Shown here: in pieces, positions 4,703-57,312 of the stretch
Layout: every line of letters begins with the position of its first letter
Numbering within the stretch: the stretch's first letter is position 1
NCBI GenBank assembly: GCA_964572155.1
Contig: CAZNDZ010000002.1
Coordinates: 19,089 to 83,088 of the forward strand
From: an uncultured Planctomycetales bacterium
GTDB taxonomy: Bacteria; Omnitrophota; Gorgyraeia; Zapsychrales; Fredricksoniimonadaceae
Direction of reading: 5' to 3'
Length of the DNA: 64,000 nucleotides
Program-made: the position numbers and the translations under genes
The notes under the pieces: model-generated
Seen by the model: the letters and a program-made list of their open reading frames with translations, nothing else
What the model was told of the DNA's origin: nothing
The model's database searches: none

Positions 4703-4776
4703 TTCGTATTTAACTATTTATAGTATATACGACAATGCAAGCAAAAACCATCAAACATCGACGGGAAAACGTTTTT

Positions 4777-31362: not shown

Positions 31363-33192
31363 ATGACTAAAAAACCATTTACACCCAATTTCAACACTTC
31401 CCCAGACAAATTTGCCAAGGAAGAACTTAATAAACTCTCAGCGCCTCAAAGCTTTGATGGAAATGTCAAAGCTGATTTTGCTGACACGACCCGTGGCGAT
31501 ATCCCTTGGGAATCAGAAGCCTTGGCCAAGAGTCATGGAGTTTACTTAGAATTCAATCGTGCCAAAGATGCCGGCCCAGAAAAAGAGTGGATTTATTTAA
31601 TCCGCATCTCGATTCCTGGTGGCGGCCCTTTAAATAAAGAACAATATAATATAATTGACGAGCTTGCTACAAAATACACCAAAGATCCGGATGGCATGCC
31701 CTCGATTCGTTTGACCAATCGTCAAAACATTCAGTATCACTGGGTGCGCAAACATCAAGTCAAAGAAATCATCAAACGCGTGGCTGAATCAGGCTTTAAC
31801 TCTTTAAATGGTTGCGGTGACAATACCCGCAATGTCATGGCTTGCCCCCTTGGTCGATTCTCGAAACATTTTAATGCAACCGCTTGGGCGAGAAAAGTTG
31901 GCGACTACTTTCAACTTCCTCTTGAGCCATTTATCACTGTCTGGGAAATTGATCCAACGAAGATCCGCAAACCAGGTGAATCTTTCAAATACGGCAAGAA
32001 CTTACTTAACCGTAAATTTAAAATTGGGATTGCAGGCGTAATCGAAGATCCTAAAACTGGTCAATTAAGCGTTGATAATTGCGCGGAAGTTTTATCCGAT
32101 GACATGGGCGTCGTTCCCGTCATTAAAGACAATAAAGTCACTTCATTTCAAATCTATATTGGTGGTGGACAAGGTGAACGTAATGGTAAACCTTCGATGG
32201 CTTGCCTTGCACAACCACTGACGCATGTTAGCGAAGCAAATTTATTAAAAACCATGGATGCCGTTCTTCAAGTCCATCAGACATGGGGTGATCGCGAGAA
32301 TCGTATTTGGGCCCGTATTAAATTTGTTGTTAAGAAAATGGGCATTGATTGGTATCGCGGCGAAGTTGAAAAGATTTTAGGCTATAAATTGGATGCCCCT
32401 ATTGCTAATCTTGATGTTGGTAGCCGTCACATGCATCATGGTTGGTTCCCACAAGACAATGGTTTATGGACCTTTGGTGCCTTTATCGAAAATGGTCGTT
32501 TAATCGACAATAGCCCCAATGGAAAACTAAAAGCCATGTGCCATTTTGTGATGAATAAATATGCCAATTTGGAATTCATGATCACGCCAAATCAAGATGC
32601 ATTGTTTTGCAATATTCCAGAAGCACAAAAGGCTGCTTTTGAAAATGATTTAGCTACTTTTGGGTATGGTAAACGCAATGGCAAAAACTATTCTCAGTTA
32701 CGCCTGTTATCAGGTGCTTGCGTTGGCCGTGATACGTGCCGTTTAACCTATACCGATTCTGAAAAGTTTGAGCCCTACTTAATTGATGAATTAGAAGCCA
32801 TGGGTTGGGGTGATTTGCATGAGTCGATTGGCATCACAGGTTGCGAACGCCAATGCTTTAGACCTGCGACCAAAACCATTGGTCTGGTTGGTTCAGGATT
32901 TAATCGTTATCAAATGAAACTTTTGGGTACGGAAGATGCCAAACATCAAGGCCTTCCCTTATTAAGTGATGATGGGGAAAGTATTTATTTAAAATCCATC
33001 CCCCGCGAACGCGTGGCTCAAGTCATTGATGTTTTACTTAAATATTGGAAAGCCAATGCGAAAACTGGTGAAAGTTTAGGGTATTTTAACCGTAGGGTTG
33101 GCATTGCTTCCATTGTGCAGCATTTTAAAGATAATCCTGTGACAACAGATTTGATGGTTAAGACTTTATCTGCAGATTGTGTGATTGAATAA
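31363..33192 (+). CDS. Ferredoxin-type sulfite (or nitrite) reductase hemoprotein, NirA/Sir family
   Basis: Two nitrite/sulfite reductase ferredoxin-like half domains. Siroheme/4Fe-4S Cys set CVGRDTC...C(3)C (TGCERQC) in the C-terminal half. 609 aa, monomeric type. Genomic context with cysH/cysDN suggests sulfite reductase. Confidence 0.75.
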   Translation: MTKKPFTPNFNTSPDKFAKEELNKLSAPQSFDGNVKADFADTTRGDIPWESEALAKSHGVYLEFNRAKDAGPEKEWIYLIRISIPGGGPLNKEQYNIIDELATKYTKDPDGMPSIRLTNRQNIQYHWVRKHQVKEIIKRVAESGFNSLNGCGDNTRNVMACPLGRFSKHFNATAWARKVGDYFQLPLEPFITVWEIDPTKIRKPGESFKYGKNLLNRKFKIGIAGVIEDPKTGQLSVDNCAEVLSDDMGVVPVIKDNKVTSFQIYIGGGQGERNGKPSMACLAQPLTHVSEANLLKTMDAVLQVHQTWGDRENRIWARIKFVVKKMGIDWYRGEVEKILGYKLDAPIANLDVGSRHMHHGWFPQDNGLWTFGAFIENGRLIDNSPNGKLKAMCHFVMNKYANLEFMITPNQDALFCNIPEAQKAAFENDLATFGYGKRNGKNYSQLRLLSGACVGRDTCRLTYTDSEKFEPYLIDELEAMGWGDLHESIGITGCERQCFRPATKTIGLVGSGFNRYQMKLLGTEDAKHQGLPLLSDDGESIYLKSIPRERVAQVIDVLLKYWKANAKTGESLGYFNRRVGIASIVQHFKDNPVTTDLMVKTLSADCVIE

Positions 33193-39666: not shown

Positions 39667-40377
39667 TTATTTAAGATGATCGTGCAATGATTGGGCGGCG
39701 CTTATTAAGCGAGATACTTTTAGAAGATCTAAAGGTTTGTTACTGACTTTATCCGCAGCAATATTGACATCAGAGAAAATCAACACACCCCCCTTAGCAT
39801 CAAGGCAAACACCCGGTTTTGAAGAAAACACGGAAGCAAATGCATCTTTGATCGACGCTATCTGAGATGTTTGGGCTGGATCCACGTAAACACGAAACTT
39901 ATCACTTAAACCTAGCACTGACGCATCTATTTTTTTAACATCAGGAAAATCAAAACCAGCTGATAGCGTATCAAAAAGTTTTGTTAAAAATTCAGGGCCT
40001 TGGGGAACACTGTCAATTGTCAAGCGGGGCACATTTAACTTTTTAGAAACCATACAAACCAATAAAGCTTCAACACCCCGCGCACGGCCACTACCACTTG
40101 CAAAGCGGTAATCACAAAAAAATAAATCATAATCTTGTGAAGTAGATTTTTGGTATAAATTCATCAACAAACGATTGCCTTGATGACGGGTATTGGCAAT
40201 TAATAAATATTTAGCGACATGATCTTTGGTGGTTTTATCAAGGCAAGGATTAAAACCTAAACTCTTTAAATCAGCGGTTAATTTCTCGTTTGCTTTCTTA
40301 GCACTCAAGAAAGTTAAATAAATAAAGAAGCTAACAAATGACACAAATGCCACAATTGCAATTAATGCTGGGTTCAT
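39667..40377 (-). CDS. Hypothetical membrane-anchored protein (N-terminal TM, 236 aa)
   Basis: TM ALIAIVAFVSFVSFFIYLTFL. No recognisable catalytic motif. 14-bp spacing to the upstream PilZ gene. Confidence 0.4.
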   Translation of the reverse strand: MNPALIAIVAFVSFVSFFIYLTFLSAKKANEKLTADLKSLGFNPCLDKTTKDHVAKYLLIANTRHQGNRLLMNLYQKSTSQDYDLFFCDYRFASGSGRARGVEALLVCMVSKKLNVPRLTIDSVPQGPEFLTKLFDTLSAGFDFPDVKKIDASVLGLSDKFRVYVDPAQTSQIASIKDAFASVFSSKPGVCLDAKGGVLIFSDVNIAADKVSNKPLDLLKVSRLISAAQSLHDHLK

Positions 40378-40391
40378 CGAGTTTCCTTTGA

Positions 40392-40766
40392 TTAATCGTT
40401 AATGCGATGTAAGGATTTTGCAGCGCGTTTCTTGATTTTTAAGTCGACATATTTAACGCCAACTTGAAAATTACCACCTTTGGTCTTTATAACACGCATG
40501 ACTTTTGCAAAGCCGTTGAAAATTTCTAAAACACCAGACATCACCACTTGCAATTCCACAATATCGCCAACACTGTAGGCAGATGCACTGCCAAACAAAG
40601 CGCCACTTAGTGACATATTCTCCGTCATGGATAATTGCCACATTGAGTCGGCATCTAATTTCTTTTCTTTGTGTTGAACAAGGCGATGACGCACGGTAAT
40701 GATGCGCTTAGCCCTTATGCTATCGCGGCGTTCATCATATAAATGTCCGTTACCTACAGCTGTCAT
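40392..40766 (-). CDS. PilZ-domain protein (putative c-di-GMP receptor)
   Basis: RxxxR (R14-DSI-R18) and D/NxSxxG (N50-M-S-L-S-G55) motifs 32 residues apart. 124 aa single-domain. Confidence 0.6.
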
Positions 40767-42157
40767 AATTTTGGTGAGATCATCTCTTTGGGTTGAACAA
40801 GCTGATCGAATTTCTCTGCTGTTAATAAGTTTAATGCCACAGCTGCTTCTTTTAAAGTAATGTTTTCTTTAAATGCTTTCTTAGCAACTTTCGCGGCATT
40901 GTCATAACCAATGTGTGGATTAAGAGCAGTGACAAGCATTAACGAGTTTTCTAAATATTTCTTAATATTTTCACGCTGTGCCTCAATGCCAACGACGCAA
41001 TTATCTGTGAAACTTTCACATGCATCTGACAACAAGCGGATGGAATTTAACACGTTAAACACAATAACCGGTTTATAGACATTGAGTTCAAAATTACCAC
41101 TCGCCCCAGCAAAAGTCACGGCGGTATTATTGCCAAACACTTGCACACACACCATGGTCATGGCTTCGCATTGGGTTGGATTAACTTTACCAGGCATGAT
41201 TGAACTTCCCGGTTCATTTTCAGGTAAATGCAATTCCGCAATACCAGCACGTGGTCCCGACGCTAACCAACGCACATCGTTAGCAATCTTCATTAACGAT
41301 GCAGCCAATGTATTTAAAGCACCACTAAATTCAACCAAGGCATCATGCGACGCTAACGCTTCAAATTTATTACGGGCCGTCTTAAACGGTTTACCTGTAA
41401 TCTCAGAAATCTTTTCTGCAGACTTAACCGCAAATCCTGGATGTGTATTTAAGCCTGTACCAACCGCGGTGCCACCAAGTGCTAATTCATACACATGTGG
41501 TAAGGCTGCGTTGATGCGCTCTAAGGTATTATCTAATTGTTGTACATAGCCAGAAATTTCTTGGCCTAAGGTGATGGGTGTTGCATCCATCAAATGGGTG
41601 CGACCAATTTTAATGATATCTTTAAATTCATCCCCTTTGGCTTGCAGGGCATCGCGCAATTTCTTAACCATGGGGATTAATCGACGGTGTGTTTCTTCAA
41701 CAACGGCAATGTGCATGGCAGTTGGGAAAGTGTCATTAGATGATTGGGCTTTGTTAACATCATCATTGGGATGTACCGGTTTTTTACTACCAATCACACC
41801 ACCAGATATCTCAATGGCACGATTTGAAATAACTTCATTAATATTCATGTTGGTTTGCGTGCCAGAACCTGTTTGCCAAACCACTAACGGAAAATGTGCG
41901 TCTAATTTTCCTGCGATGACTTCATCAGCGGCCTTAACAATTAAATCAGCCTTTTCCTGAGACAAAATACCAAGGTCTTTATTTGCTAAAGCAGCAGCTT
42001 TTTTTAATATACCTAAAGCGCGGATCATTTCTTTTGGAAAGCGATCGCCACCAATTTTGAAATTTTCTAAAGAACGTTGGGTCTGTGCACCCCAATAAAC
42101 ATTGGATGCAACATTAACTTCGCCCATGCTATCTGTTTCAATGCGATAATCTGCCAT
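40763..42157 (-). CDS. fumC: Class II fumarate hydratase
   Basis: [14 protein letters not shown] start, [31 protein letters not shown] signature. Start moved to the internal ATG at 42157 (the track ORF extends 14 codons upstream, overlapping the SPFH gene). Confidence 0.85.
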
Positions 42158-42158
42158 A

Positions 42159-43010
42159 TTATTTAATTGGCGCAACCCCTGCCAAATCTCCAATGACATT
42201 GGTTAAATCAGAACCTGCGGGTACAACAATTTTTGTATTTGTTGCCAATGATTTTTCAACAGCTTCTAGACGACGTAATAATTGAGCATTACCGATGAAA
42301 TACTTATTTGCAGCCTCATTAACGAGTTGAATGGCTTGCGCTTCACCTTCAGCCTCAAGAATACGCGCCTGCTTGATGCCTTCGGCTTTTTTAATCTCTG
42401 CTCGTTTTTGACCATCAGCAACAGTTTCCGTCGCGGTTGCAAAATCGATGGCTGAAATTTTTTCATTTTCCGCTTTAACAACTTTATTCATGGTTTCTTG
42501 AACATCTTTAGGTGGATCAATTTCTTTAAGCTCTGTACGAACAATCTCTAGCCCCCAATTTGCTGTCTCGCGCATGAGGATTGTGTATAAATCCGCATTA
42601 ATGCGTCCGCGTTCACTATTGGCTGACTTTAAGGTCATGGTCCCGATGATATTACGCAACGTGGTGCGGGCTAAATTGACAATTTGCCATTGGTAATTGC
42701 CGACATTATACTGACAATTCTTAACGCTTTGCTCGTCGGTTTTAACCTTAAAATACACCTGCGCATCCACTTTGGCATTTAAATTATCATTGGTGATGAT
42801 TTCTTGTGGTTCAGCATCAACCATTTGTTCGGTGACATTAACCAAATACATATTTTCAACCAAGGGAATCACCCAGTTAAAACCTGGGACGGCAAAACGA
42901 TTGTATTTACCAAAGCGTTCAACCAAACCACGATGCGTTGGACGTACAATGCGAATCCCAAAGATAAAAATAAAAATTGCTGCTATGACGACAATACCCA
43001 AATATTCCAT
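42159..43010 (-). CDS. SPFH/band-7 (stomatin/HflC-like) protein
   Basis: N-terminal TM, SPFH core ([16 protein letters not shown]...), C-terminal coiled coil. Confidence 0.8.
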
Positions 43011-43020: not shown

Positions 43021-44406
43021 CTATTTTAACAAATAATTCGTCAGCAAACGTACACCTGCACCTGTTGCACCATGGCCATAATAGAAACGACCACTGCCAT
43101 CCACGTACGCACTTCCTGCAATATCCAAATGCGCCCATGTGGTCCCGTTGGTAAATTGATGCAAGAACTCCGCTGCTGTGCTTGCCCCACCGCCGCGCAC
43201 ATTGCTGGTATTTTTTAAATCAGCAATTGGCGACTTGATATATTCTTTCATTTCAGGATAAATCGGCAAATGCCACGCACGATCATCGGTTTCGATTGAC
43301 AACTTGGACAACTCACTGGCTAAGTCATCATTATTAGAAAACAAACCAGAATAATCAAAACCTAAAGCTACAACACAAGCACCGGTTAAGGTGGCCATGT
43401 CGATCATGATTTCAGGTTTATAGTTTTTAACAACATACGCAAACGCATCAGCCAAGACCAAACGGCCTTCAGCGTCAGTGTTTCCAATCTCAACACTTTT
43501 ACCAGCATAACCTGTATACACATCACCTGGCTTATAGGCCAATGAACCAATTGCATTTTCAGCAATACCTAAAACGAATAATAGATTCTTCTTAATCCCT
43601 AATGCGATCGTGTTCTTTAAAATACCACATACAGCACCAGCGCCAGACATGTCAATCTTCATCGTTTCCATGCTGCCCGTTGGCTTGATGTTTAAACCAC
43701 CGGTGTCATAGGTCATGCCTTTGCCGATGATGGCGGTATATTTATCGCTGCTTTTGCCACCTGCATATTTGACGATGATAAGCTTAGGTTCTTTTGGACT
43801 TGCTTGATTAACGGCCAAATGCAAATTCAAGCCCTTGGCTTTCATTTCTTTTTTATTTAAGATTTCTAAACTGATGTTCTTTTTACCCTTAACCAAATCT
43901 TTGACGGTTTTTTCTAAGAATTCCGACGTGACCGTGTCGGCATTGTCATTGATCAAATCACGGGTTAAATTAACACCTTGGCAAATTGTCACTGCATTAT
44001 CAAATGCAGCTTTGCGTTCGGCAATGATGGTAATGTCTTTAACCTTAATACTCTTATCATCTTCTGGTTTAGATTTATATTTATCCCAAACATACGTCCC
44101 AATCAAGGCGCCTTCAATGATGGCAATGATGGAACGTTCATCTTTTGTGTGAGGAATTAATTCAACGTCTTTGACATTCTTTAAAATTCCCGACATCAAC
44201 GCCTTACGCACTTCGATGCGCAATGCTGTTAACGTTAAGGCTTTTTCTTTACCGAGACCAACAAAGACATAGGTGGTTTTCCCGTCGATCACTGGAAAAA
44301 TTTCACCCTTATCTAAATCACGCTTTAACAAGGCATGTTTTTGATCTTTGGATAATAAAACAATGACAGCTGACTTTAATGATGCTTTGCTTGCAAATGA
44401 AATCAC
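43021..44406 (-). CDS. pepA: Leucyl aminopeptidase (M17)
   Basis: NTDAEGRLVLADA signature and DMATLTGA. Confidence 0.85.
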   Translation of the reverse strand: MISFASKASLKSAVIVLLSKDQKHALLKRDLDKGEIFPVIDGKTTYVFVGLGKEKALTLTALRIEVRKALMSGILKNVKDVELIPHTKDERSIIAIIEGALIGTYVWDKYKSKPEDDKSIKVKDITIIAERKAAFDNAVTICQGVNLTRDLINDNADTVTSEFLEKTVKDLVKGKKNISLEILNKKEMKAKGLNLHLAVNQASPKEPKLIIVKYAGGKSSDKYTAIIGKGMTYDTGGLNIKPTGSMETMKIDMSGAGAVCGILKNTIALGIKKNLLFVLGIAENAIGSLAYKPGDVYTGYAGKSVEIGNTDAEGRLVLADAFAYVVKNYKPEIMIDMATLTGACVVALGFDYSGLFSNNDDLASELSKLSIETDDRAWHLPIYPEMKEYIKSPIADLKNTSNVRGGGASTAAEFLHQFTNGTTWAHLDIAGSAYVDGSGRFYYGHGATGAGVRLLTNYLLK

Positions 44407-44426: not shown

Positions 44427-45716
44427 CTAACGCTGATCTATGGGCACGTAATCACGTGTGGTTGCCCCAGTGTAAATTTGAAATGGTCTGCCGATCTTTG
44501 TCGTTGGATCTTCGATCATTTCTTTCCAATGCGCAATCCAACCTGGCATACGACCAATGGCAAACATAACAGGAAACATTTTGAGTGGAATACCTAAGGC
44601 ACGTAAAATAATACCGCTGTAAAAATCGACGTTTGGATATAACTTGCGATCAATGAAATATTGATCTTTAAGAGCAGCCTCTTCTAAACGTTTGGCAATG
44701 TCTAATAATGGGTCATTGATCCCTAATTTACCAAATAATTCATCGGCTTTTAGCTTAATGAGTTTGGCGCGTGGATCAAAGTTCTTATACACACGATGAC
44801 CAAAACCCATTAAACGAAACTTGCTGGTTTTATCTTTAGCAAGATCGACAAACTTTTGAACATCGCCGCCATCCGCTTGAATTTCCTGTAACATTTCAAT
44901 AACGGCTTGATTTGCACCGCCATGTAGCGGTCCCCACAAGGCACAAATACCGGCAGAGATGGATGCGTATAAATTCGCATGAGAACTACCCACCAAACGT
45001 ACCGTTGAGGTGGAACAATTTTGTTCATGATCAGCGTGCAAGATAAAAATAACACGCAACGCTTCCACAGCTTCGGGGATTAATCGATATGGACTTGTAG
45101 GCGATGAAAACATCATGTTCATAAAATTAGGCACATACATCAAATCATGGCGGGGATAAACAAATGGTTCGCCAATGGATTTTTTATATGAGAACGCACA
45201 TATGGTACGCACCTTTGATAACAATTGAACTGCAATGCGATCAATGTCGGCTTTTGTAGGATTTTCTTTCACCATGTCAGGATAATATGCGGACATCGAA
45301 CAAACCATGGCAGATAAAATCCCCATCGGATGTGCGCTTGACGGGAACGCATCAAAAAAGTTCTTCATGTCTTCATGAATCATGGAATGTTCATTAAATG
45401 CCGCGGAAAAGCCTTCTAATTCTTGTTTGTTAGGAAGCTTGCCATGAATCAGAAGATACGATGTTTCAACAAAGGTGGATTTCTCGGCGAGTTGTTCAAT
45501 TGGGTAACCGCGATAACGCAAGATACCTTTATCACCATCGAGATATGTGATGGCACTTTTGCAAGAACCTGTATTACCAAAACCTGGATCTAATGTGATA
45601 TAGCCCGTCGTACTGCGCAATTTGGCAATATCAATAGCCTTTTCACCTTCTGAGCCAACGATAACCGGACAATCAAGCTGCTTACCTTCAATATTTATTA
45701 AAATATTGTCTGCCAT
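44427..45716 (-). CDS. gltA: Citrate synthase (type II)
   Basis: GFGHRVYK, length and overall pattern match citrate synthase. ATG verified; SD GGGAGG present. Confidence 0.9.
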   Translation of the reverse strand: MADNILINIEGKQLDCPVIVGSEGEKAIDIAKLRSTTGYITLDPGFGNTGSCKSAITYLDGDKGILRYRGYPIEQLAEKSTFVETSYLLIHGKLPNKQELEGFSAAFNEHSMIHEDMKNFFDAFPSSAHPMGILSAMVCSMSAYYPDMVKENPTKADIDRIAVQLLSKVRTICAFSYKKSIGEPFVYPRHDLMYVPNFMNMMFSSPTSPYRLIPEAVEALRVIFILHADHEQNCSTSTVRLVGSSHANLYASISAGICALWGPLHGGANQAVIEMLQEIQADGGDVQKFVDLAKDKTSKFRLMGFGHRVYKNFDPRAKLIKLKADELFGKLGINDPLLDIAKRLEEAALKDQYFIDRKLYPNVDFYSGIILRALGIPLKMFPVMFAIGRMPGWIAHWKEMIEDPTTKIGRPFQIYTGATTRDYVPIDQR

Positions 45717-45748
45717 GTTGCTTTGCCTCCCTTAGGGTTGTCGTTTGC

Positions 45749-45777
45749 ATTATAGTACTATTGATATGACGTGTAAA
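45749..45777 (-). promoter_or_regulatory. gltA promoter TTTACA-N17-TATAAT, embedded in the 3' end of the upstream HD-GYP gene
   Basis: Read on the minus strand: -35 at 45777-45772, -10 at 45754-45749. About 26-nt leader to the ATG at 45716. Confidence 0.45.
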
Positions 45778-46813
45778 TCGCCTCAATATCTTTCTTAGAA
45801 TCCATAAAAGCTTCAACTAACCTTGGATCAAAATGTGTACCGCTTAATCGTTTGATTTCTGCAAAAGCTTCTTCCATGCTCCACGGTTGTTTATACGGAC
45901 GGTCCGATGTTAACGCATCAAAGACATCTGCCACGGCCGCAATACGACCAACCAAAGGAATACCATCTTGCTTTAGAGCATTGGGATAACCAGATCCATC
46001 AAATTTTTCGTGATGTGATAAAGCAATTGTTTCTGCCATCTTTAAAAACGCAGAGTTGCTGCCCTGTAACATTTGCGCACCCCAAATGGTGTGCTTCTTC
46101 ATGACTTCAAATTCTGCTGGATCAAGGCGACCAGGTTTAAGTAAGATAGCGTCAGGAACAGCAACTTTTCCAATATCATGTAAGACAACCGTATTTAAAA
46201 TTAATTCGCATTGACCAAGGCTTAATCCTAAAGCTTTCGATAAAACATGGGCATAACGGCTCATGCGATTGATATGAACACCGGTGTGCTCGTCGCGAAA
46301 TTCAGCAACTTTCGCCAAACGCCAAACCACATCCATGCGTGTTTGATATAAATCTTTAGTGCGTTCTTTAACATTTTCTTCTAGGCTAACATTTTGACCG
46401 CGGATTTGATTGTATAATTTGCGGACCTCGATGAGATTGCGGCTGCGTAAAATAACATCCAAACGATCATATGGTTTTCTTAAGAAATCTTTAGCCCCTG
46501 CTTGAAACGCACGTGTGCGCAAAGACTCCTCTTGCTCTGCCGTGATCATAATGACCGGCAAATACCCTTCAGGATCCGTTGACTTAAATTGCTCCATAAC
46601 TTCAATGCCATTAAAGGTTGGCATTTTATAATCAAGCAAAACCAAATCAGGTTTTGTTTCTAAATACAATGATAATGCTTTGGATGCATCCGTAGTTAGG
46701 GTGAGATTTTGAAAACCAGCTTCATTTAAGATTTTTTTGAGGATTTGAACATTTAAGACATTGTCGTCAACGATGAGGATGTTAGCACTTAAGATTTGTT
46801 CTTCGCTTATCAT
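45758..46813 (-). CDS. Response regulator receiver + HD-GYP domain protein (putative c-di-GMP phosphodiesterase)
   Basis: REC with acceptor Asp (LVLLDYKMP); HD-GYP motifs HDIGKVAVPD and HHEKFDGSGYP. Confidence 0.8.
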   Translation of the reverse strand: MISEEQILSANILIVDDNVLNVQILKKILNEAGFQNLTLTTDASKALSLYLETKPDLVLLDYKMPTFNGIEVMEQFKSTDPEGYLPVIMITAEQEESLRTRAFQAGAKDFLRKPYDRLDVILRSRNLIEVRKLYNQIRGQNVSLEENVKERTKDLYQTRMDVVWRLAKVAEFRDEHTGVHINRMSRYAHVLSKALGLSLGQCELILNTVVLHDIGKVAVPDAILLKPGRLDPAEFEVMKKHTIWGAQMLQGSNSAFLKMAETIALSHHEKFDGSGYPNALKQDGIPLVGRIAAVADVFDALTSDRPYKQPWSMEEAFAEIKRLSGTHFDPRLVEAFMDSKKDIEAIYTSYQ

Positions 46814-46815
46814 AA

Positions 46816-48609
46816 TTAAATCATATATTCTGGGTCTAAAACTAATGCTTTGGTTAAAAGAGTAACGATTTCTTTGATAGCCTTATCGGAATCCATATTT
46901 TCTTCAAGGGTTAGGTCAACATTAGCACTGTCTAAACGATCATCGCCCATATTAACAACAAAGGTGCGATTGGGCATATTGAGCGTCTTTAACATTTTAA
47001 GTTCTGGATCATCGATGTCGGTCACACTGGTGATCATAATCAACCCTGCGTCCGTCATCAAATGCGCTAATTCACCCAATTGTACTAGCATTGCGTATTT
47101 TCCCAAAGTCTTATCTTGAGAATCTGACGCAGCTAAGCTCAAACGATTTGAAATGCCTAAGAAATAAACGTTCTTGCCTAAATTAAATAAAGCTTCTTCC
47201 AAAGCTTTAGCGATACGTTGTTTACCCGTATCAATTTTTCCAGCAATTAAAATCAAGGCGCTTTTATGTTCATATTTTTTCGCGCGTAAATCTGGGGTGA
47301 TATGTGAGCGTTCCCATGAAAATTCACGTTTCTTAATGTGCGTGCTTAAGGCATTCTCATTATCAAACACCGGCGCTAAAATGATACCCCCACCGGCAAT
47401 TTCATATTGATCAACAATGACAAAACGACCAGTTGCCGCCACATCCCCAACTAAATCAAACGCCACAGGTTTAGCTGTTTCAAAAATACATTCACCCACT
47501 TCATGACGCGCCACATGATCTTTTTTTACAGACACTAAATCAGAGGCATTAAGCACATGAATGATTTCACTTAATATCACAGGAACTTGTTGCGTCGCTA
47601 TTTTTAATTTATAGGTCTTACCTTGAACCAAAGCTTGTTTACCCATCCAAAATACGTTGGCTTTGAATTTATTGCTAACGCTAGGTTGCTTTTCAGCAGC
47701 CTTAACCATGACTTCACCTGGGCGAATATAAATTTCGGTGTCCATGGTAAATCCTGCAGACTGACCTGCGTATGCTTCACTACGTAAAGGGCCATTAAAA
47801 TATTCGACGGACTTGATGCGATTTTTCTTACCTGAGGGTAAAAAAACAATATCTTCGCCAACTTTAACCGTTCCCGTCTCAATACGCCCTACAACAATGC
47901 GACGCTCATCACCTTCTTCAGTAAACTTATAAATATCTTGAACAGGCATACGTAAAACTTGATGCTCAGCGGAAGGCTGCTTCTTAAACTTATCTAAGGC
48001 TTCTAAAATATTCTCTTCTTTATACCACGGCATCTTTGCGCTCTTATTGGCAATGTTATCACCGTGAAACGCAGCAACAGGGATAAAGAAATTGGGCTTC
48101 AAATCGATTTCATTTAAAAACTTGGTGTAATCGGCTTTGATTTGTTCAAATGTCTTCTGATCATAGTTGACCAAATCCATTTTATTAACACACACCGCTA
48201 AATTCTTAATCCCTAAGAAACGCATCATGTAACCATGACGCTTGGAATTTTCTTTAATGCCTTCGTGTGCGTCGATCACTAGCAAAGCGGCTTCTGCTCG
48301 AGCAGCACCAGAAATCATATTTTTTAAGAATTCGATATGGCCTGGTGCGTCAATGATGATGTAGTCACGCTTTTCAGATTTAAAAAAGGTGCGGGCGGTA
48401 TCGATCGTGATGCCTTGGGATTGTTCATCTTTAAGCGCATCAAGCAAAAAAGCATATTCAAAAGGTTTGGCATTACGTTGGCATTGTAATTTGACAGCTT
48501 CCAATTTACCGTCGGGTAATGACCCTGTATCTGCGAGCAATCGTCCAACCAACGTGCTTTTACCGTGGTCCACGTGTCCAACGATGACCACATTCATGGC
48601 TTCTCTCAC
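46816..48609 (-). CDS. cysN: Sulfate adenylyltransferase subunit 1 (GTPase) fused to a degenerate APS-kinase-like C-terminal domain
   Basis: [11 protein letters not shown]1 motif, DAPGH, NKMD. The C-terminal roughly 160 aa are APS-kinase-like ([11 protein letters not shown]) but the P-loop is AGKIDTGKQ and the DGDN motif is absent. Confidence 0.8.
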
Positions 48610-49499
48610 ATGTACCCCTCTTTACGTAATGTTTCAAGACCGCCGCCATCTTCCTTATCTTGGGCGCGGCCAGAACGTTCAGCTATATTTTTAAATTTAC
48701 CTTCACGCAATTCTTTGACTATATCCGCTACATTCTTCGCCGTTGAATCAACAGGCGTTGTGCAGGGATAACACCCTAAGGAACGATAGCGCTTGCCGGT
48801 GCCTTGATCAAAATATAAATCGGTGATCGGTATATTTTCACGTTGAATGTATTCCCAAATATTAAGCTCTGTCCAATCAAGCAACGGATGAATGCGAATA
48901 TGTGTTCCCGGAGCAAAATCAGTTTTAAATTGATTCCATAATTCAGGTGGTTGATCACCCACATCCCAGTCACTATTGCGATCGCGTGGAGAAAAATAAC
49001 GTTCTTTGGAACGACTACCTTCTTCATCCGCACGAGCCCCAACAATAACACCGGTATATGGTTCGGTATTGACATCAACATCGTACTGACCTGTTTTATG
49101 ATTAAGTCTTTTCCTAGGCCACGTTCCCGCCAATGTATGTTTTAATGCTTCACTTTTTAAGGCCTTGCAGCAAGAAATGCGATCAATAGCGCCGTCTGGA
49201 AATGTACGTTTATCTTTTAGTGCTTGCACGTTTTGACCAACGACCATGTTTAAATGAAATTTAAGTGCCAATTCATCGCGGTACTTGATCATGGCAGGGA
49301 TCTTATAACTGGTATCAATGTGCACCAATGGGAATGGCACGTGACCAAGGAAAGCTTTACGCGCTAACCATAACAATACCGTCGAGTCCTTACCGATAGA
49401 CCACAACATGACCAAAGATTTAAATTCACGGTAAGCTTCACGTAAAATATAAACGCTTTGGGATTCAAGAGCATCCAATTTATCTTGCATCTGACTCAT
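48606..49499 (-). CDS. cysD: Sulfate adenylyltransferase subunit 2
   Basis: [24 protein letters not shown]-loop (SGGKDS-type). Confidence 0.85.
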
Positions 49500-50230
49500 T
49501 TTTTATTCGCTTTCCATTTAGGATTATTGTGCAACCCACATTCTTTTTGTTCCGGCATTTCCCACCACCAGCGACCAGCACGAATGTCTTCACCTTCCTT
49601 GATCGCACGGGTACACGGCGCACAACCAATACTGACAAATCCTTGCGCATGCAATGGATTTACATCTACGCCATTTTCTTTGATATAGGCACGCACTTGA
49701 TCCAATGACCAATTGATCAATGGATTAACTTTAATTTTATTATTTGCCGCATCCCATTCAAAAACTTGAGCATCTGTACGTGTTAATGACTGAGCACTAC
49801 GTAAACCCGTAATCCACGCATCGACGCTAGAAAGCGCACGCTTTAATGGTTCGACCTTACGAATCCCACAGCAAAGTTTGCGATTTTCCACACTATCGTA
49901 AAACAAATTAATACCTTTTGTTTTAACCATGTCTTCAACCGCAGCTGTATTAGGGAAATAAACCTTAAATGACACCTGAGGGTATTTTTTCTGATTCTTA
50001 TCCCACAGATCATAACTTTGTGCAAACAATCGCCCTGTATCGAGCGTAAAAATCTCAATACCCGACGCATGTTTGGCGATCATGTCAGTGATCACTTGAT
50101 CTTCTTCGCCTAAACTGGTTGCAAAGGAAATTTTATTGCCAAACTCTGATAAAGCTAATGCCAACACCTGCTCTGGTGTTTTACCTTTAGCTTTATTCCT
50201 TAAATCTTCTACGCGTGCCTGTGTATCCAT
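49496..50230 (-). CDS. cysH: Adenylylsulfate (APS) reductase, Fe-S containing CysH type
   Basis: PAPS/APS reductase fold plus two Cys pairs (KLCCGIRK and SIGCAPCT) diagnostic of 4Fe-4S APS reductases. Confidence 0.8.
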
Positions 50231-50233: not shown

Positions 50234-51274
50234 TTAAATATCGTAATCGTAATAAGTTATATTTTTAGGACGAACAAATACGTGTTGTCCTTTTAATAAT
50301 TTTAAAGCTGCGTATTCTTCCTGACTCATTTCAGCAGCAATTGATTTTCCAGCATCAGATAATAAATCAATCTTTACCATCGATCCAGCCGGATTAATAT
50401 ACCTTATAACAGCTTTTATTGCACTATCATCTTGCTTGGTTTTGCTAACATCCAACTGATGCGGACGTATATACAACTGACCTTGCTTGTTGCCTTTTTC
50501 TTCTTTTGCCCCTAAAAGCATTTTTCCATCTTCAATGCGTCCATGAAACAAATTCACATTTCCTAAAAAGTTAATAACAAATGTACTTGCTGGTTTATGA
50601 TAAACCTCTTCTGGGGTACCAACCTGCTCTATCTTACCCTTATTCATCACCACAACACGATCCGCAACCTCTAGAGCCTCTTCTTGATCATGGGTTACAA
50701 AGATAGATGTAATGTGCAATTCATCGTGAAAACGGCGTAGCCATTGGCGCAATTCTTTGCGGACTTGTGCGTCGAGAGAACCGAAGGGTTCATCTAATAA
50801 TAATACTTTTGGTTCAATGGCCAAAGCACGTGCTAATGCAATGCGTTGACGCTGACCACCGGATAATTGTGAAGGGAAACGATCTGCCACCCAATCCAAT
50901 TGAACCAAATGCAACAACTCTGTGACTTTTGCCTTAATCTTTTCTTCAGACGGACGTTGAGCTTTTGGTTTGACGCGCAACCCAAAGGCAATATTTTCAA
51001 AAACCGTCATATGACGAAATAACGCATAATGTTGAAACACAAAACCAACACCACGATCCTTGGCTGTTTTTTCCTTTGTATCTTGCCCATGAAAATGTAT
51101 GTCGCCCTTGTCAGCAAATTCCAATCCCGCAATAATACGCAACAATGTTGTTTTTCCTGAACCTGATGGACCAAGCAATGCGATTAACTCGCCTGTTTGA
51201 ACATGAAGTGAAACATTATCTAAGGCTCTAAAATCTCCAAAATTTTTAATGATATGTTTTACTTCTATGCTCAT
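50234..51274 (-). CDS. cysA: Sulfate/thiosulfate ABC transporter ATP-binding protein
   Basis: Walker [18 protein letters not shown] signature, C-terminal TOBE-like domain. Confidence 0.85.
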
Positions 51275-52086
51275 TGGAAACGCACCTTTTCTAAGACTGT
51301 CTTAATGATCAATGTTATCAACGCTAAACATGCAAGCAAGGAAGCAACCGCAAAAGCCGCTGTAAAATTATACTCATTATACAAAATTTCAATTTGCAAA
51401 GGTAACGTATTGGTAAGCCCGCGTATATGACCTGACACAACAGACACAGCCCCAAACTCACCCATCGCACGGGCATTACATAAAATCACACCGTATAATA
51501 AACCCCATTTGATATTTGGTAATGTGACATACAAAAATGTTTTAAATCCACTCGCTCCCAACGTTATTGCCGCCTCTTCTTCCTCATTACCCAAAGATTT
51601 CATGACAGGGATTAATTCACGGGCCACCATGGGAAACGTCACAAAGATCGTCGCTAGAATAATCGCAATGGGTGTGAAAATGATTTTAATGTCATGGGCT
51701 TGCAACCAAGGCCCAAAAACACCCTGCAAACCGAACAACAATACATAAATTAGACCTGAAACAACGGGCGATACTGATAAAGGCAAATCGATCAACGTTA
51801 ATAGAAAATTTTTGCCATGAAAATCAAACTTCGCAATCGCCCATGAAGCCGCAACGCCAAACACCACATTGAGTGGTACGGCAATTGCTGCTGCCAACAT
51901 TGTTAATTTGATGGCTGCAATGGTATTTGGATCCGCCAATGATTGGAAGTAAACACCAAAACCCTTCTTAAAACCACTGACAAAAATCAAAATGAGCGGG
52001 AGCAATAAAAATAAGAATAAAAACAATAATGCCACGCTAATCAAGATAAAACGAATATAAGGTTTTTCTGTTCTTCGCACTGACAT
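51271..52086 (-). CDS. cysW: Sulfate ABC transporter permease CysW
   Basis: Six TM helices; EAA-like loop ([10 protein letters not shown]). Confidence 0.8.
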
Positions 52087-52919
52087 TAATTCATCCCAAT
52101 CCGCTTTGAACTAATTTGCTGTAAATAATTTGTTAACGCTAACAATGAAAATGAAACCACCAGCATCACAACCGCAATGGCTGTTGCGCCTGCATAATCG
52201 TACTGCTCAAGCTTTGTGATGATCAAAAGCGGCGCAATTTCTGTTTTTCCTGGCATATTGCCCGCAATGAAAACAACTGAACCATACTCACCAATGGTTC
52301 TTGCAAAAGCCAAACTAAAGCCTGTAATCACAGACGGTAGCAAAGCTGGGAAAATTACGCGCAAGAAAATATCTTTTCGACTCGCCCCCAAACTTGCCGC
52401 TGCATCTTCTAACTCTGCATCTAACTCTTCTAAGACAGGCTGTAAGGTGCGTATGATAAACGGCAAACCAATAAACATCAAAGCTAAAGTGATGCCTAAA
52501 AAATTGTACGTTGCAGGAATCCCTAGTTTAATAAGATATTGCCCAATCCAACCGTTGGTTGAATACAATGAGGTTAATGTAATCCCCGCAACAGCCGTGG
52601 GCAAAGCAAAGGGCAAGTCAACCAAGGCATCAAAAACCTTCTTGCCTGGAAAATCATAGCGCACCAAAACCCATGCAATGATAAAACCAAAAAAAACATT
52701 AACCAAAGATGCCACAAAAGCCGCACCAAAACTTAAACGGTAGGCCGCCAATGTTCTTGGAGAAGATATAACCGCCCAAAAATCATGCCATCCCATGGTC
52801 GATGTTTTAAAAAATAACAACGACAATGGGATGAGCACAATCAGGCTTAAATAGAATACCGTATAGCCTAAGCTTAAATTAAATCCAGGTAAAATAGAAC
52901 GTGTTTTAAGTAACCGCAT
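52086..52919 (-). CDS. cysT: Sulfate ABC transporter permease CysT
   Basis: Six TM helices; [13 protein letters not shown]. Confidence 0.8.
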
Positions 52920-52960: not shown

Positions 52961-53971
52961 TTAATTTCCGTAAATCTGATCAAAGGAACCCTTATCAGAA
53001 AAATGGACTGCTTGTGCTTTTTGCCATCCACCAAACTCTTGATCAATGGTAAACGTATTAACTGGCTTAAATTGCGCCACATACTTTTTTAAAATTGTCG
53101 CAGATCTAGGCCGATAGAAATTTCTAGCTATGATGTCTTGACCTTCGTCGGAGTACAAATAATTTAAATATTCCGCAGCAACTTTCTCATTGCCATGACG
53201 CTTGGCATTACGCTCTACCACCGCCACTGGTGGTTCCGCTAAGATAGTTACTGATGGCACAACAATTTCAAACTCTTCTTTACCTAATTCATTGACCGCC
53301 AAGTAAGCCTCATTCTCCCAAGAGATGGCCACATCACCAATCTTACGTTCCACAAAGGTGGTAGTTGCCCCTCGGGCACCTGAATCAAGGACAGGTACAT
53401 TCTTAAATAAAGCCGCGATAAATTCTTTAATCTTAGCTTCATCGCCACTAAACTTTCTTGATGCATAACCCCATGCAGCTAAATAATTCCAACGTGCACC
53501 GCCAGATGTTTTAGGATTTGGTGTAATCACAGCAACCCCAGGTTTTACCAAATCATCCCAATCTTTAATATTCTTTGGATTTCCCTTACGTACTAAGAAC
53601 ACAATTGTTGAAGTATAAGGCGTGCTATTATCCGGAAGTTTCTTTTGCCAGTCTGTTGGTAACAACCCAGACTTCGTTGCAATATTATCAATGTCATATG
53701 ACAAAGCCAATGTCACAACATCAGCATCTAATCCGTCAATAACAGAACGTCCTTGCTTACCACTGCCACCATGAGATTGATTAACACTCACAACATCCCC
53801 TGTTAAACCTTTCCAATGATCGCTAAAAGCTTTGTTATATTCTTCATATAACTCACGGGTTGGATCATACGACACATTAAGCAATGTAACAGACTTTGCC
53901 CACGCCCCAGCATTAACCCCGAAGCTAAAGACCACAGCCAGCAAGAGCGTTAATATATTTTTGACTTTCAT
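52961..53971 (-). CDS. sbp: Periplasmic sulfate/thiosulfate-binding protein
   Basis: Signal peptide; [21 protein letters not shown] matches the Sbp/CysP N-terminus. Confidence 0.8.
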
Positions 53972-54004: not shown

Positions 54005-55375
54005 TTAGTATGCTAATTGAACACGTGTTAAAAAAACATTTTCTTTTAAACGATCTTCATTATTTGCAGCCCCTCGATCAAAACGTGTTTGTTCAAAATC
54101 AAGGCTAAGACGCACGTTCTTGTGAGGATACCAATTCAAACCAAGACCCCATGCATCTTCTTTATTAATTGCGGTATTCAAATTAGCAAAACTACTATCG
54201 AAGATATTATTATCTAATTTTAACTGACCAAGACGACCCACCACTTCAAATGCGCCCCATGTTTTCTTTTCTAAATCAAACACATTTCTTGGTGTTATAC
54301 CCTTAAAAGATGCAACCTCACCTGTTAAAACATAGTTACCTGAGATTTGCCATGCTTTATTGGTAAATGTATCACGAATTGTACTACCACCAGAAACTCT
54401 AACCAACTTCTGATTGGAAATAGCATACTCACCAAGCAACCCTAAAGATCCATTGTAATAATATGCTTGTGGACTTAGGCGTGTATGTTGGCCATCTGCA
54501 GAAACTCCAGATGCATAACTAAACACACTCGCTTGACCTGGAGATCTATATGTAGGTGTTGAACTACCTTCTTTGTGTCCATAAGATCCCGCCACACCTA
54601 AACCTAAACCTTTAAGACCTTCGATACTCGTATTCTTAAAAGGATGCGCAAAGATTCTTGCAACCAAATCTTTATCGTTGTTATTATCCGCCGCATCAAC
54701 ACTTGCCAAGTCAGCGCCACCGTTTGAAACAGCAACCGCATAACTTAAGGATTCATTATATAAGTCACCAAAAACTTGGAAACCTACGTCACGATTTGGA
54801 ACTAAGTTTGAAACCAAACCGGTTTCAATAAAATTAGCAACTGCATCAGATTGCAAACGCTCCAAACCAAAAGGCGATTTAAACTTACCTGCTCGGATCT
54901 TAAACTTAGGATCAAACTTAAAATCAGCATACGCATCAACTAATAATGTATTACTTGCGCTATTGTTAGCCAAATCAGGCATTAAATAGAAATCAAAATA
55001 CTTTCCAACCGTACCTTCAAAGATAGGACGTGCACGACGGATTAAGAAGTTATCGCCCGTACCTGATAAATCTTTCTTATTATTAGTGAATGTACGTGAA
55101 TCAGCTTGGACTAAGCCACGTATCTTTAATTTAAAAGAATCATCCGGTGACTTAAAACTAAAACCATCTTTGGCACTTGCGGTAATAATCGGCGTTTCTT
55201 TTGCCTTATTTGCTGCATCTTCTTTATTAATTTCAATTTGTCTTTTAAGAATAGCCAACTCTTGTTCAAGCTGACTTAATCGCGTTTCTAAATCTGTCGT
55301 TTGTGCCCATGTTGTTTGTGAGAATACGGTCGTTAAGAGGACCGCCACAGTGACTACTTTAGATATTGTTTTCAT
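54005..55375 (-). CDS. Outer-membrane anion porin, Porin O/P family, with N-terminal coiled coil
   Basis: Signal peptide ending AQT, coiled-coil LSQLEQELAILKRQIEINKE, alternating beta-strand pattern, C-terminal aromatic (QLAY). The track start at 55381 is TTG; moved to the ATG at 55375. Confidence 0.65.
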   Translation of the reverse strand: MKTISKVVTVAVLLTTVFSQTTWAQTTDLETRLSQLEQELAILKRQIEINKEDAANKAKETPIITASAKDGFSFKSPDDSFKLKIRGLVQADSRTFTNNKKDLSGTGDNFLIRRARPIFEGTVGKYFDFYLMPDLANNSASNTLLVDAYADFKFDPKFKIRAGKFKSPFGLERLQSDAVANFIETGLVSNLVPNRDVGFQVFGDLYNESLSYAVAVSNGGADLASVDAADNNNDKDLVARIFAHPFKNTSIEGLKGLGLGVAGSYGHKEGSSTPTYRSPGQASVFSYASGVSADGQHTRLSPQAYYYNGSLGLLGEYAISNQKLVRVSGGSTIRDTFTNKAWQISGNYVLTGEVASFKGITPRNVFDLEKKTWGAFEVVGRLGQLKLDNNIFDSSFANLNTAINKEDAWGLGLNWYPHKNVRLSLDFEQTRFDRGAANNEDRLKENVFLTRVQLAY

Positions 55376-55398
55376 TACCAACCTTTCTTCCTATTTAT

Positions 55399-55433: not shown

Positions 55434-55883
55434 TTAAATGATGTAACTTCCGACTGTTGATTCATTTTGGGACTTTACTAAAAGTTCCGCCAAGCTTGTT
55501 TTATCTAATATTAACGACATTGCATCCCTAACCTCCTTCATAATCACCTTTATTTCACATTTCTCTTCAGATTTACATTCTTTACAACGTTCATATGCTG
55601 TATGACTTACGCACGACACTGGCGCTAAAGGCCCTTCTAACACTCTAATAACATCACCAACCATGATTTCATTGCTTGATCGACCAAGGGAGTAACCACC
55701 ACCCTTACCCTTCTTACTCTTTAATAAACCTTTTTTACGTAATTCTAGTAAAATTGCTTCTAAAAACTTTTGAGGGATTTTCTCTTCCCTTGCTATGTCG
55801 GTAATTAATATGTTTTCATTGGCTGTTTTCTTAGCCAAATAAATCACCGCTTTTAAACCATATTTAGTTTTTTGAGATATCAT
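55434..55883 (-). CDS. Rrf2 family transcriptional regulator (IscR/CymR-like) with C-terminal Cys cluster
   Basis: N-terminal wHTH (MISQKTKYGLKAVIYLAKK...ILITDIAREEKIP.KFLE.IL.EL.K.GLL.S..G..GGY.L); Cys residues at CVSHTAYERCKECKSEEKC. Confidence 0.8.
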   Translation of the reverse strand: MISQKTKYGLKAVIYLAKKTANENILITDIAREEKIPQKFLEAILLELRKKGLLKSKKGKGGGYSLGRSSNEIMVGDVIRVLEGPLAPVSCVSHTAYERCKECKSEEKCEIKVIMKEVRDAMSLILDKTSLAELLVKSQNESTVGSYII

Positions 55884-55916
55884 TGCTTAGTCCATTAAAT
55901 CTATAGAGAGTATATA

Positions 55917-56960
55917 CTAAATTTTTAACTTGTCAATTATTTTTTTTGTTCCTGAAGGCAACGGATACTTATCGAAATCTTTTACCCCTGCCCACACAGC
56001 CTCTTTTCCCACCTTAGGACTAGGATTAACTTCGGACTCGAAGACTGATAAACGAACCTTGTATTGCGTATAAAAATGCGTCACATCAAATAAATATTTC
56101 GATGCGGTGACCGCCACGCCCAACTCTTCCTTTATCTCTCTAATTAAAGCCTGCTCTTTGGTCTCACCTTTTTCAATCTTTCCTCCAGGAAATTCCCACA
56201 TCCCCTGAAGCAAGCCTTTTGTCGCGCGTCGTTGAATAAAATATTTATTATCTTTCTTTATAATTCCTATGACCGCATGAATGTTTTGTATATTTTTAAC
56301 CATCTTAGTAGGAATTGATTCTTGGCAATTTTCTGCGCATGCTTTACAGAAACTTCTAACAGGACAAATCAGACAAGCAGGATCTTTGGGTTTACAGATC
56401 AATGCCCCCAACTCCATCAATGCTTGATTAAAATCACCCGCATGCGTTTTTGGAAAAACTTTTGTCAGATATTCTGATATGGCTTTGTCTTGCGTTGTAT
56501 CTGCATAACCATTTAATAAAACAATGCGCATGATAACACGACGGACATTGGCATCAATGATTTGTAACGGAAGATCAAAAGCAATGCTTAACACAGAACC
56601 TGTTGCATATGGGCCAAACCCAGGCAAAGCCCTTACAAGCGCCGGATCCTTAGGCAATTGCCCATCATATTGATCAAGCACGATTTGACTTGCTTTATGC
56701 AAGTTTCGCGCTCGTGCGTAATAGCCAAGACCTTGCCAACATTTAAGCACGCGCTCAATGGGCGCCTTGGCTAGCGATTCTACCGTCGGAAAAGTTTTGA
56801 ACCAGCGATCATAATAGGAAATGACAGTACTTACCGTTGTTTGTTGCAACATCATCTCGGAGACCCAAATCTTGTAAGGGTCCTTAGTATGACGCCAAGG
56901 CAGATCACGTCGGTTTTTGTTGTACCATGTTAGCAGCGAAGCAGAAAAGTTTTTAGGCAT
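55917..56960 (-). CDS. mutY: A/G-specific adenine DNA glycosylase with C-terminal NUDIX-like domain
   Basis: LLTWYNKNRRDLPWR, HhH-GPD, 4Fe-4S Cys cluster (C.ICPVRSFC), C-terminal MutT-like domain. Confidence 0.8.
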   Translation of the reverse strand: MPKNFSASLLTWYNKNRRDLPWRHTKDPYKIWVSEMMLQQTTVSTVISYYDRWFKTFPTVESLAKAPIERVLKCWQGLGYYARARNLHKASQIVLDQYDGQLPKDPALVRALPGFGPYATGSVLSIAFDLPLQIIDANVRRVIMRIVLLNGYADTTQDKAISEYLTKVFPKTHAGDFNQALMELGALICKPKDPACLICPVRSFCKACAENCQESIPTKMVKNIQNIHAVIGIIKKDNKYFIQRRATKGLLQGMWEFPGGKIEKGETKEQALIREIKEELGVAVTASKYLFDVTHFYTQYKVRLSVFESEVNPSPKVGKEAVWAGVKDFDKYPLPSGTKKIIDKLKI

Positions 56961-57312
56961 GCGCGATCAGATCAATAAATAAATCAGCAATTTGGGGATG
57001 CTGTCCGACAGGTGAAGAAATACTAAACTTTATATGCGGATATTTTTGTTTTACTTCTGCAACAATCTGAGGAATATCATCATTGACGTGACGACCAGCA
57101 TTTAAAAAGTTAAGCAAAACGATAATATCCGTCGCCCCCTTAGCAACGCATGACTCAAGGCCCATGGCTATGTCCGGCATTTCTATTTCTAGAAACGCGT
57201 ATTCGAATATTGAAACACCTGAACGCGATTTCAAGATTTGAACCAAAGCTTCAACTTCTTGCTTGGTCTTTGCAGAACGGCTACCATGACTGATAAGTAA
57301 GACAGCTTTCAT
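56953..57312 (-). CDS. Small CbiX/SirB-type sirohydrochlorin chelatase
   Basis: 119 aa. MKAVLLISHGSRS...GATDIIVLLNFLNAGRHV matches the short CbiX pattern. Confidence 0.65.
   Translation of the reverse strand: MKAVLLISHGSRSAKTKQEVEALVQILKSRSGVSIFEYAFLEIEMPDIAMGLESCVAKGATDIIVLLNFLNAGRHVNDDIPQIVAEVKQKYPHIKFSISSPVGQHPQIADLFIDLIAHA

Follow-up and report, generated by a model that had tools for sequence, protein, structure and literature searches.

The 64-kb window analysed here (the whole stretch of DNA, 64,000 nucleotides of contig CAZNDZ010000002.1) comes from an uncultured bacterium of the Omnitrophota, a phylum whose members are mostly uncultivated and very small. Its subject is a gene for a response regulator in which a receiver (REC) domain is joined to an HD-GYP domain, hereafter the HD-GYP gene, which lies immediately behind a set of sulfate-assimilation (cys) genes. 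All genes of this region are on the minus strand of the window. According to an earlier note on this DNA, the HD-GYP gene starts 2 nucleotides (nt) past the stop codon of cysN, as the last member of the gene string Rrf2 regulator, porin, sbp, cysT, cysW, cysA, cysH, cysD and cysN. Both the junction and the string are confirmed, each gene of the latter by its Pfam or NCBIfam match, and the features concerned are listed below with amino-acid (aa) positions where they apply; APS stands for adenosine 5'-phosphosulfate and PAPS for 3'-phosphoadenosine 5'-phosphosulfate.

45758-46813, minus strand: REC-HD-GYP response regulator gene, an open reading frame (ORF) of 351 aa with RpfG-family architecture
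46457-46780, minus strand: REC domain, aa 12-119, with D16, D17, the phospho-acceptor D61, T91 and K113
45818-46315, minus strand: HD-GYP domain, aa 167-332, delimited by Pfam, by the alignment with PmGH and by the columns of the orthologue alignment A1
46814-46815, minus strand: spacer between cysN and the HD-GYP gene, 2 nt between the TAA stop and the ATG
46816-48609, minus strand: cysN, GTPase subunit of sulfate adenylyltransferase, 597 aa (GTP_EFTU 1e-46; passes NCBIfam TIGR02034)
48606-49499, minus strand: cysD (Pfam PAPS_reduct, NCBIfam CysD)
49496-50230, minus strand: cysH of the APS-reductase type (Pfam PAPS_reduct; TIGR02055 APS_reductase, 251 bits against a cut-off of 235)
50234-51274, minus strand: cysA (Pfam/NCBIfam)
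51271-52086, minus strand: cysW (Pfam/NCBIfam)
52086-52919, minus strand: cysT (Pfam/NCBIfam)
52961-53971, minus strand: sbp, sulfate-binding protein (Pfam/NCBIfam)
54005-55381, minus strand: porin of the Porin_O_P family (Pfam/NCBIfam)
55434-55883, minus strand: Rrf2 regulator (Pfam; the nearest NCBIfam model is CymR, below its cut-off)
55909-55936, minus strand: candidate operon promoter upstream of the Rrf2 gene, TTGACA-16-TATACT (11/12 to consensus)

Promoter-like sites, here and below, come from a consensus scan, are scored as matches out of 12 and are pattern matches only. The junction reads ...GAA TAT ATG ATT TAA tt ATG ATA AGC, and no Shine-Dalgarno sequence precedes the HD-GYP ATG in the window. 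The gaps along the block are -1 nt (cysT/cysW), -4 nt (cysW/cysA), +3 nt (cysA/cysH), -4 nt (cysH/cysD), -4 nt (cysD/cysN) and +2 nt (cysN/HD-GYP), against +41 nt from the HD-GYP gene to gltA, the next gene downstream; this pattern agrees with transcription together with cysN and with coupled translation of the two genes. The earlier note had named a terminator or promoter between 46813 and 46816 as evidence against its proposal, and there is none, since the 2-nt junction leaves no room for either. The terminator search found no terminator-like hairpin at either end of the HD-GYP gene, and two weak hairpins within its coding sequence (46637-46656 and 46051-46066) were dismissed for their poor T-tracts. 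An Rfam search over the whole window returned no riboswitch or other RNA family, and thus neither a c-di-GMP (cyclic diguanylate) nor a SAM (S-adenosylmethionine) riboswitch in the operon. The HD-GYP gene shares with the cys genes their strand and their spacing, and no terminator-like site separates it from them. By spacing, it would be a member of the cys block and gltA would start a new unit, with read-through possible, and co-expression of the HD-GYP gene with the cys genes is likely in the lineage of the window.

The encoded protein, in which a coiled linker joins the REC and HD-GYP domains, is a standard RpfG-family response regulator and appears competent for catalysis. Pfam identifies Response_reg (6e-27, aa 12-119) and HD_5 (3.8e-32, aa 167-332), the latter spanning profile positions 4-170 of 170, and the start codon is sound, as the N-terminus MISEEQIL is conserved in orthologues. 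Across the 18 sequences of alignment A1, the receiver shows no variation at D17, D61 and K113 and hardly any at D16, and position 91 is occupied by T or S. Among solved structures, the best match is PmGH (4mcw, E 6.7e-53), a tri-iron enzyme from Persephonella marina that acts as a c-di-GMP phosphodiesterase, and the HD-GYP domain aligns with it gap-free. The metal ligands of PmGH are E185, H189, H221, D222, H250, H276, H277 and D305 (PMC4159591); seven of them map to H180, H212, D213, H241, H267, H268 and D296 of the window protein, in which D174 and K216 are the equivalents of PmGH D183 and K225. The HD, HHE and GYP motifs are complete (H212-D213, H267-H268-E269 and G275-Y276-P277). The seven core ligands, D174, K216 and the GYP triplet are invariant in the 18 orthologues, so the metal-binding residues that the earlier note had wished to see verified by alignment are indeed present.

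The eighth ligand differs. At the place of E185, the bridging ligand of the third metal in PmGH, the window protein has His176 (codon 46286-46288, minus strand), followed by the retained T177-G178. The motif is therefore H-T-G and not the E/D-T-G of the trinuclear subfamily, 7 of the 8 metal ligands are present, and a tri-metal site is not assured. The same position is His in the locus L003 as well, and D, E, H or G across the orthologues, with Gly in many, and metal stoichiometry may vary there inside one orthologous family. PmGH differs further in its N-terminal domain, which is GAF where the window protein has REC. In its two-domain architecture, canonical receiver residues and full HD/HHE/GYP motifs, the window protein resembles members of the RpfG family such as Thermotoga maritima TM0186 and Xanthomonas RpfG, and phosphorylation-dependent hydrolysis of c-di-GMP would be expected of it by this likeness. 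In contrast to rpfG, which adjoins rpfC, the window gene has no adjacent sensor kinase and stands last in a sulfate-assimilation operon. Its best NCBIfam match, NF053512 (NosR-family response-regulator c-di-GMP phosphodiesterase), reaches 154 bits and does not pass the cut-off of 400.

To place the junction among relatives, genomic contexts were gathered by exact-protein look-ups, a scan of a genome collection and a scan of metagenomes, and were analysed with tblastn. The genome scan used a full-length alignment as query, with generic REC and HD-GYP motifs as patterns. Among the matches listed, it contained four loci labelled Omnitrophota or Omnitrophica, three of them with conserved neighbours; the genome of the window itself did not appear, and the other 76 loci listed were used as a negative control only. 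The metagenome scan, queried with an N-terminal, family-specific alignment, contributed at least about 15 useful Omnitrophota loci. In the protein search, the best 120 matches listed are REC-HD-GYP proteins of about 350 aa with 53-100% identity, and those that carry a name belong to Candidatus Omnitrophica/Omnitrophota. On these comparisons, the HD-GYP gene is an orthologue of a REC-HD-GYP gene that is conserved across the Omnitrophota.

The direct order cysN, HD-GYP, gltA occurs in five lineages: the window, L003 (83% HD-GYP identity), the P0007 contig (68%), L004 (66%) and L168 (64%), with cysN/HD-GYP gaps of +2, +1, +14, -4 and +32 nt, respectively, the last of which contains a Shine-Dalgarno sequence. 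In three further lineages, L006 (59%), L170 (59%) and L169 (58%), the gene surE (5'/3'-nucleotidase) stands between cysN and the HD-GYP gene. In L119 (53%) and L139 (48%), cysHDN is separated from surE-HD-GYP-gltA by 1.8-2.7 kb of unrelated genes, namely a porin and FMN_bind gene in L119 and exbB-exbD-tonB in L139. The order surE-HD-GYP-gltA-pepA-(band7)-fumC with no cys genes nearby is found in L005, L008, L088, L090, L091 and L094 (58-62%), and surE-HD-GYP with another downstream context in L017 (gltA 4 kb away) and L007 (men operon). Eight Omnitrophota loci have no cys genes within the upstream DNA available. The adjacency of cysN and the HD-GYP gene, whose conservation the earlier note had proposed to check, is thus seen in the five lineages of one clade; in the other Omnitrophota loci, surE intervenes, the cys genes lie at a distance or the available upstream DNA shows none. 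Among the genome-scan matches listed, the 70 REC-HD-GYP loci not labelled Omnitrophota include none with cysN, surE or gltA as neighbour, and L010, labelled Omnitrophica, likewise has none of the three; these 71 negative loci were drawn from L010-L016 and L018-L087.

No surE is present in the 64-kb window. Outside the window's subclade, nearly all Omnitrophota relatives carry it directly upstream of the HD-GYP orthologue, at these positions in four of the loci read:

L005, 9264-10004: surE, upstream of the HD-GYP gene
L006, 9241-9990: surE, upstream of the HD-GYP gene
L169, 9243-9989: surE, upstream of the HD-GYP gene
L170, 9228-9974: surE, upstream of the HD-GYP gene

The gene has the same place in L007, L008, L017, L088-L094, L119 and L139. 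The surE-to-HD-GYP gap is -4 to +26 nt in the loci read, except in L119 (+74 nt), and the gap from the HD-GYP gene to gltA is larger in every case (20-420 nt). Whatever the layout, the HD-GYP gene sits close behind its upstream neighbour, and in the layouts with surE it closes the upstream unit at this tight spacing.

The HD-GYP proteins were placed in a neighbour-joining tree with four of the direct-junction lineages and without L168 (fetched later); these four form one clade, sister to a clade that holds L006 and the surE-HD-GYP-gltA group. Since the sister and deeper lineages carry surE upstream of the HD-GYP gene, the direct junction is best read as derived, by surE loss. The simplest account would start from an older layout, (cys operon)-surE-[REC-HD-GYP]-gltA-pepA-band7-fumC-PilZ, from which surE was lost once from the intervening position; by the same account, loss or relocation of the cys operon took place in another lineage. 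The junction has persisted in the five lineages despite saturated synonymous divergence, and so has the whole region of about 20 kb. By tree and gene order, the junction is a recent, clade-restricted and unusual operon context for a known kind of protein.

The HD-GYP gene shows no sign of foreign origin. GC (guanine plus cytosine) content is uniform across the region, and divergence from L003 runs parallel to that of the neighbours (dN, nonsynonymous divergence, of 0.136 against 0.06-0.09 in neighbour genes), and horizontal transfer of the gene was rejected on these grounds. Synonymous sites are saturated, so dN/dS, the ratio to synonymous divergence (dS), is not computable and dN alone is reported; from the sequences compared, we conclude that the gene is under purifying selection.

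Several observations concern the variation of these loci. The cys operon is reshuffled in relatives, and the series cysH-D-N followed by (surE)-HD-GYP stays fixed. The Rrf2 gene, at the head of the operon in the window and L003, is located between cysA and cysH in several of L004, L006, L168, L170 and the P0007 contig; the porin is kept by some loci and missing from others, and in L169 a PHO4-type permease and a PALP enzyme replace the ABC (ATP-binding cassette) transporter. The outer flanks of L169 are the same as those of the window (NADK-CbiX-MutY upstream, gltA-pepA-band7-fumC-PilZ downstream), and downstream of the conserved block it carries a SLATT / SMODS / TIR-SEFIR set (19365-21056), a candidate anti-phage defence. 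In L163 (9977-10453) and L149 (about 1889-2323), a receiver-only gene (about 158 aa, receiver plus coiled coil) stands between surE and gltA, and in L142 (about 4614-4991), at a contig end, surE is followed by the receiver part only; these genes keep the N-terminus of the family and have lost the HD-GYP domain.

The description of the HD-GYP gene as the last gene of its string, given by the earlier note, is correct for the tight cys block and does not extend to the co-directional run, which continues past it through gltA, pepA, band7, fumC, PilZ and one ORF without assignment. The features of this part are the following.

45749-45777, minus strand: promoter-like site TTTACA-17-TATAAT (11/12 to consensus), straddling the HD-GYP stop
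45726-45733, minus strand: strong Shine-Dalgarno sequence AAGGGAGG ahead of the gltA ATG
44427-45716, minus strand: gltA (Pfam)
43021-44406, minus strand: pepA (Pfam)
42159-43010, minus strand: band7 (Pfam)
40763-42199, minus strand: fumC (Pfam)
40392-40766, minus strand: canonical PilZ gene (Pfam; motifs RRDSIR (RxxxR) and NMSLSG (NxSxxG))
39667-40377, minus strand: ORF of 236 aa after the PilZ gene, with a hydrophobic segment at its N-terminus, unmatched in Pfam and NCBIfam

Here the gaps are +20 nt (gltA/pepA), +10 nt (pepA/band7) and -4 nt (fumC/PilZ). Besides the window, 9 of the 12 relatives whose stretch upstream of gltA was read have a TATAAT or TATGAT box there, and a Shine-Dalgarno sequence before gltA is evident in the window and in several relatives. 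The HD-GYP/gltA spacer contains no stable RNA fold, its folding being no better than that of shuffled sequence (z -0.47). Taken together, gltA and the later genes probably have their own promoter as well. In the majority of Omnitrophota loci, even at HD-GYP identities as low as 48-53%, the HD-GYP orthologue is followed by this block, gltA-pepA-(band7)-fumC-PilZ, and the block, not cysN, is the most widely kept neighbour.

The cys genes themselves point to a particular form of the pathway. The C-terminus of CysN holds an APS_kinase-like remnant (27 bits, profile positions 2-81 of 152) whose Walker A motif reads GKIDTGKQ, and the protein falls below the NCBIfam cut-off for the bifunctional CysNC. 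This suggests direct reduction of APS and a non-catalytic, possibly regulatory, kinase-like domain in CysN; given the APS-reductase-type CysH and the degenerate CysC-like tail of CysN, PAPS may not be made in the window organism. Two further genes round out the route from sulfate to sulfide close to the operon: one for an assimilatory sulfite reductase hemoprotein (31363-33192, plus strand), about 13 kb from the cys operon, and one for a CbiX protein (sirohydrochlorin chelatase-like; 56953-57312, minus strand), two genes upstream of the Rrf2 gene and just past mutY.

The earlier note had also reported a GGDEF cyclase with an I-site, a REC-EAL protein and a PilZ receptor in the window, and all three are real by Pfam and motifs. 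The two that lie outside the region described above are these.

25562-26524, minus strand: PAS-GGDEF diguanylate cyclase (Pfam GGDEF 3e-42; RxxD I-site)
3530-4702, minus strand: REC-EAL phosphodiesterase, atypical (Pfam EAL 3.5e-43, Response_reg 1.9e-20)

In the translation of the cyclase, the I-site RKTD stands five residues ahead of GGDEF (RKTD-IIGRL-GGDEF). The EAL motifs of the REC-EAL protein are intact. In its receiver, which is probably atypical or a pseudo-receiver, the acidic pair is missing (ILIISHS), as is the conserved T/S (IGGHG), and the Asp and the Lys are retained.

Our preferred reading, to which we give a probability of about 0.7, is that the HD-GYP gene encodes a canonical RpfG-family regulator which, in this lineage, is probably expressed with the cys operon following the loss of surE. 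Judging by spacing only, the promoter or promoters of the Rrf2-headed sulfate-assimilation operon would drive its transcription, and its translation would probably be coupled to that of cysN, because it lacks its own ribosome-binding site. The amount of the protein would then track expression of the cys operon, and its activity would be set by phosphorylation of D61. In characterised RpfG-family members, phosphodiesterase activity depends on receiver phosphorylation (bioRxiv 10.1101/2021.11.05.467447). By analogy with the family, D61 would receive its phosphoryl group from acetyl phosphate or from a histidine kinase encoded elsewhere, which would turn on a metal-dependent HD-GYP phosphodiesterase that converts c-di-GMP to pGpG (the linear diguanylate) and GMP. 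With less c-di-GMP, receptors would signal less, for example the PilZ protein whose gene lies 5 kb downstream.

Several points weigh against this reading. Within the 3' end of cysN there are weak promoter-like matches (9/12), and an internal promoter is possible, but the matches occur at chance frequency and no motif is common to the four clade members, and the candidate was rejected. No intrinsic terminator lies between the HD-GYP gene and gltA, and the boundaries of the transcription units are uncertain. Neither Pfam, applied to ten large ORFs, nor patterns for the H-box, N-box and G2-box, applied to all six frames of the 64-kb window, revealed a histidine kinase. The replacement of E185 by His176 means that metal stoichiometry and activity could differ from those of PmGH. 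The second-best solved relative of the HD-GYP domain is a cyclic GMP-AMP (cGAMP) phosphodiesterase; by sequence, the substrate could be c-di-GMP, cGAMP or pGpG. For the co-expression with sulfur genes that the earlier note had proposed, the spacing fits, and the adjacency on which it was built proves to be derived and of single origin.

A stronger proposal than co-expression is a selected circuit in which sulfate limitation would derepress the operon under Rrf2 control, and the ensuing fall in c-di-GMP would alter behaviour. The tight junction retained in five lineages in the face of saturated synonymous divergence speaks for it, as do the cys genes directly upstream of surE-HD-GYP in three more lineages and within 3 kb in two, a proximity that holds while Rrf2, porin and transporter type are reshuffled. 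There is also a precedent at the metabolite level: in Vibrio vulnificus, PAPS raises c-di-GMP and so ties sulfate assimilation (cysD/N/C/H) to c-di-GMP (PMC6113621). However, the direct junction arose only once, surE-HD-GYP is found in eight Omnitrophota loci whose available upstream DNA shows no cys genes, and the region of about 20 kb is syntenic as a whole, so that conservation is not specific to the junction; the junction also occurs in no other phylum sampled among the genome-scan matches listed. We therefore regard such a circuit as possible, yet with the odds against it. The link from sulfur to c-di-GMP could be adaptive, or it could be a neutral by-product of surE loss. With similarly unfavourable odds, the HD-GYP gene might belong functionally to gltA-pepA-band7-fumC-PilZ, with a c-di-GMP enzyme and a c-di-GMP receptor bracketing central-carbon genes and the position behind cysN being incidental. 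Here the lasting association counts in favour: gltA stands behind the orthologue in almost every Omnitrophota locus, and PilZ closes the block in distant Omnitrophota down to a PilZ identity of 37-48%; in the window, the start codon of PilZ and the end of fumC share 4 nt, and no terminator stands between the HD-GYP gene and gltA. Yet the gap to gltA is always the larger one and a TATAAT-like box precedes gltA in the window and in most relatives read, while the spacing between the HD-GYP gene and the gene upstream is tight in every case; moreover, L006, L170 and L007 keep surE-HD-GYP with no gltA downstream.

The remaining alternatives carry less weight. That the HD-GYP protein is not a c-di-GMP hydrolase in vivo, being an inactive interaction module or acting on 3'3'-cGAMP or pGpG, is very unlikely in our judgement. 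The carboxylate ligand of the third metal has become His176, and Gly in many orthologues, a cGAMP enzyme ranks second among the solved relatives, and inactive RpfG-family members are known (bioRxiv 10.1101/2021.11.05.467447); against this stand the invariance of the seven core ligands, D174/K216 and the GYP motif, the partial activity retained by the E185A mutant of PmGH (PMC4159591), and the GGDEF, EAL and PilZ proteins of the window, which indicate that c-di-GMP is in use. Only slightly less improbable is the most far-reaching proposal, an ancient Omnitrophota supercluster of cys genes, SurE, an RpfG-type phosphodiesterase, citrate synthase, fumarase and PilZ, in which c-di-GMP turnover would be wired to sulfur and would report to central carbon through PilZ, the phosphodiesterase having become a true member of the cys operon in the window's lineage.

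Nothing in the full-text literature searches described an HD-GYP gene within a cys operon, the pairing of surE with HD-GYP, or PilZ alongside genes of the tricarboxylic acid cycle, and the searches turned up no relevant study of second-messenger signalling in Omnitrophota. The case for a functional sulfur link is one of gene order, the protein itself being a standard member of its family. The pattern more notable than the junction is the conserved Omnitrophota arrangement surE-[REC-HD-GYP]-gltA...fumC-PilZ, often with the cys operon ahead of it, and it offers a cleaner target than the original finding. If the phosphodiesterase is indeed expressed with the cys operon, as we consider probable for this lineage, sulfur limitation would have a simple transcriptional route to lower c-di-GMP. 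Such a route would share with Vibrio vulnificus the tie between the sulfate-assimilation pathway and c-di-GMP levels, but it would differ from the link known there, in which the metabolite PAPS raises c-di-GMP, in that it would act through a phosphodiesterase embedded in the operon.

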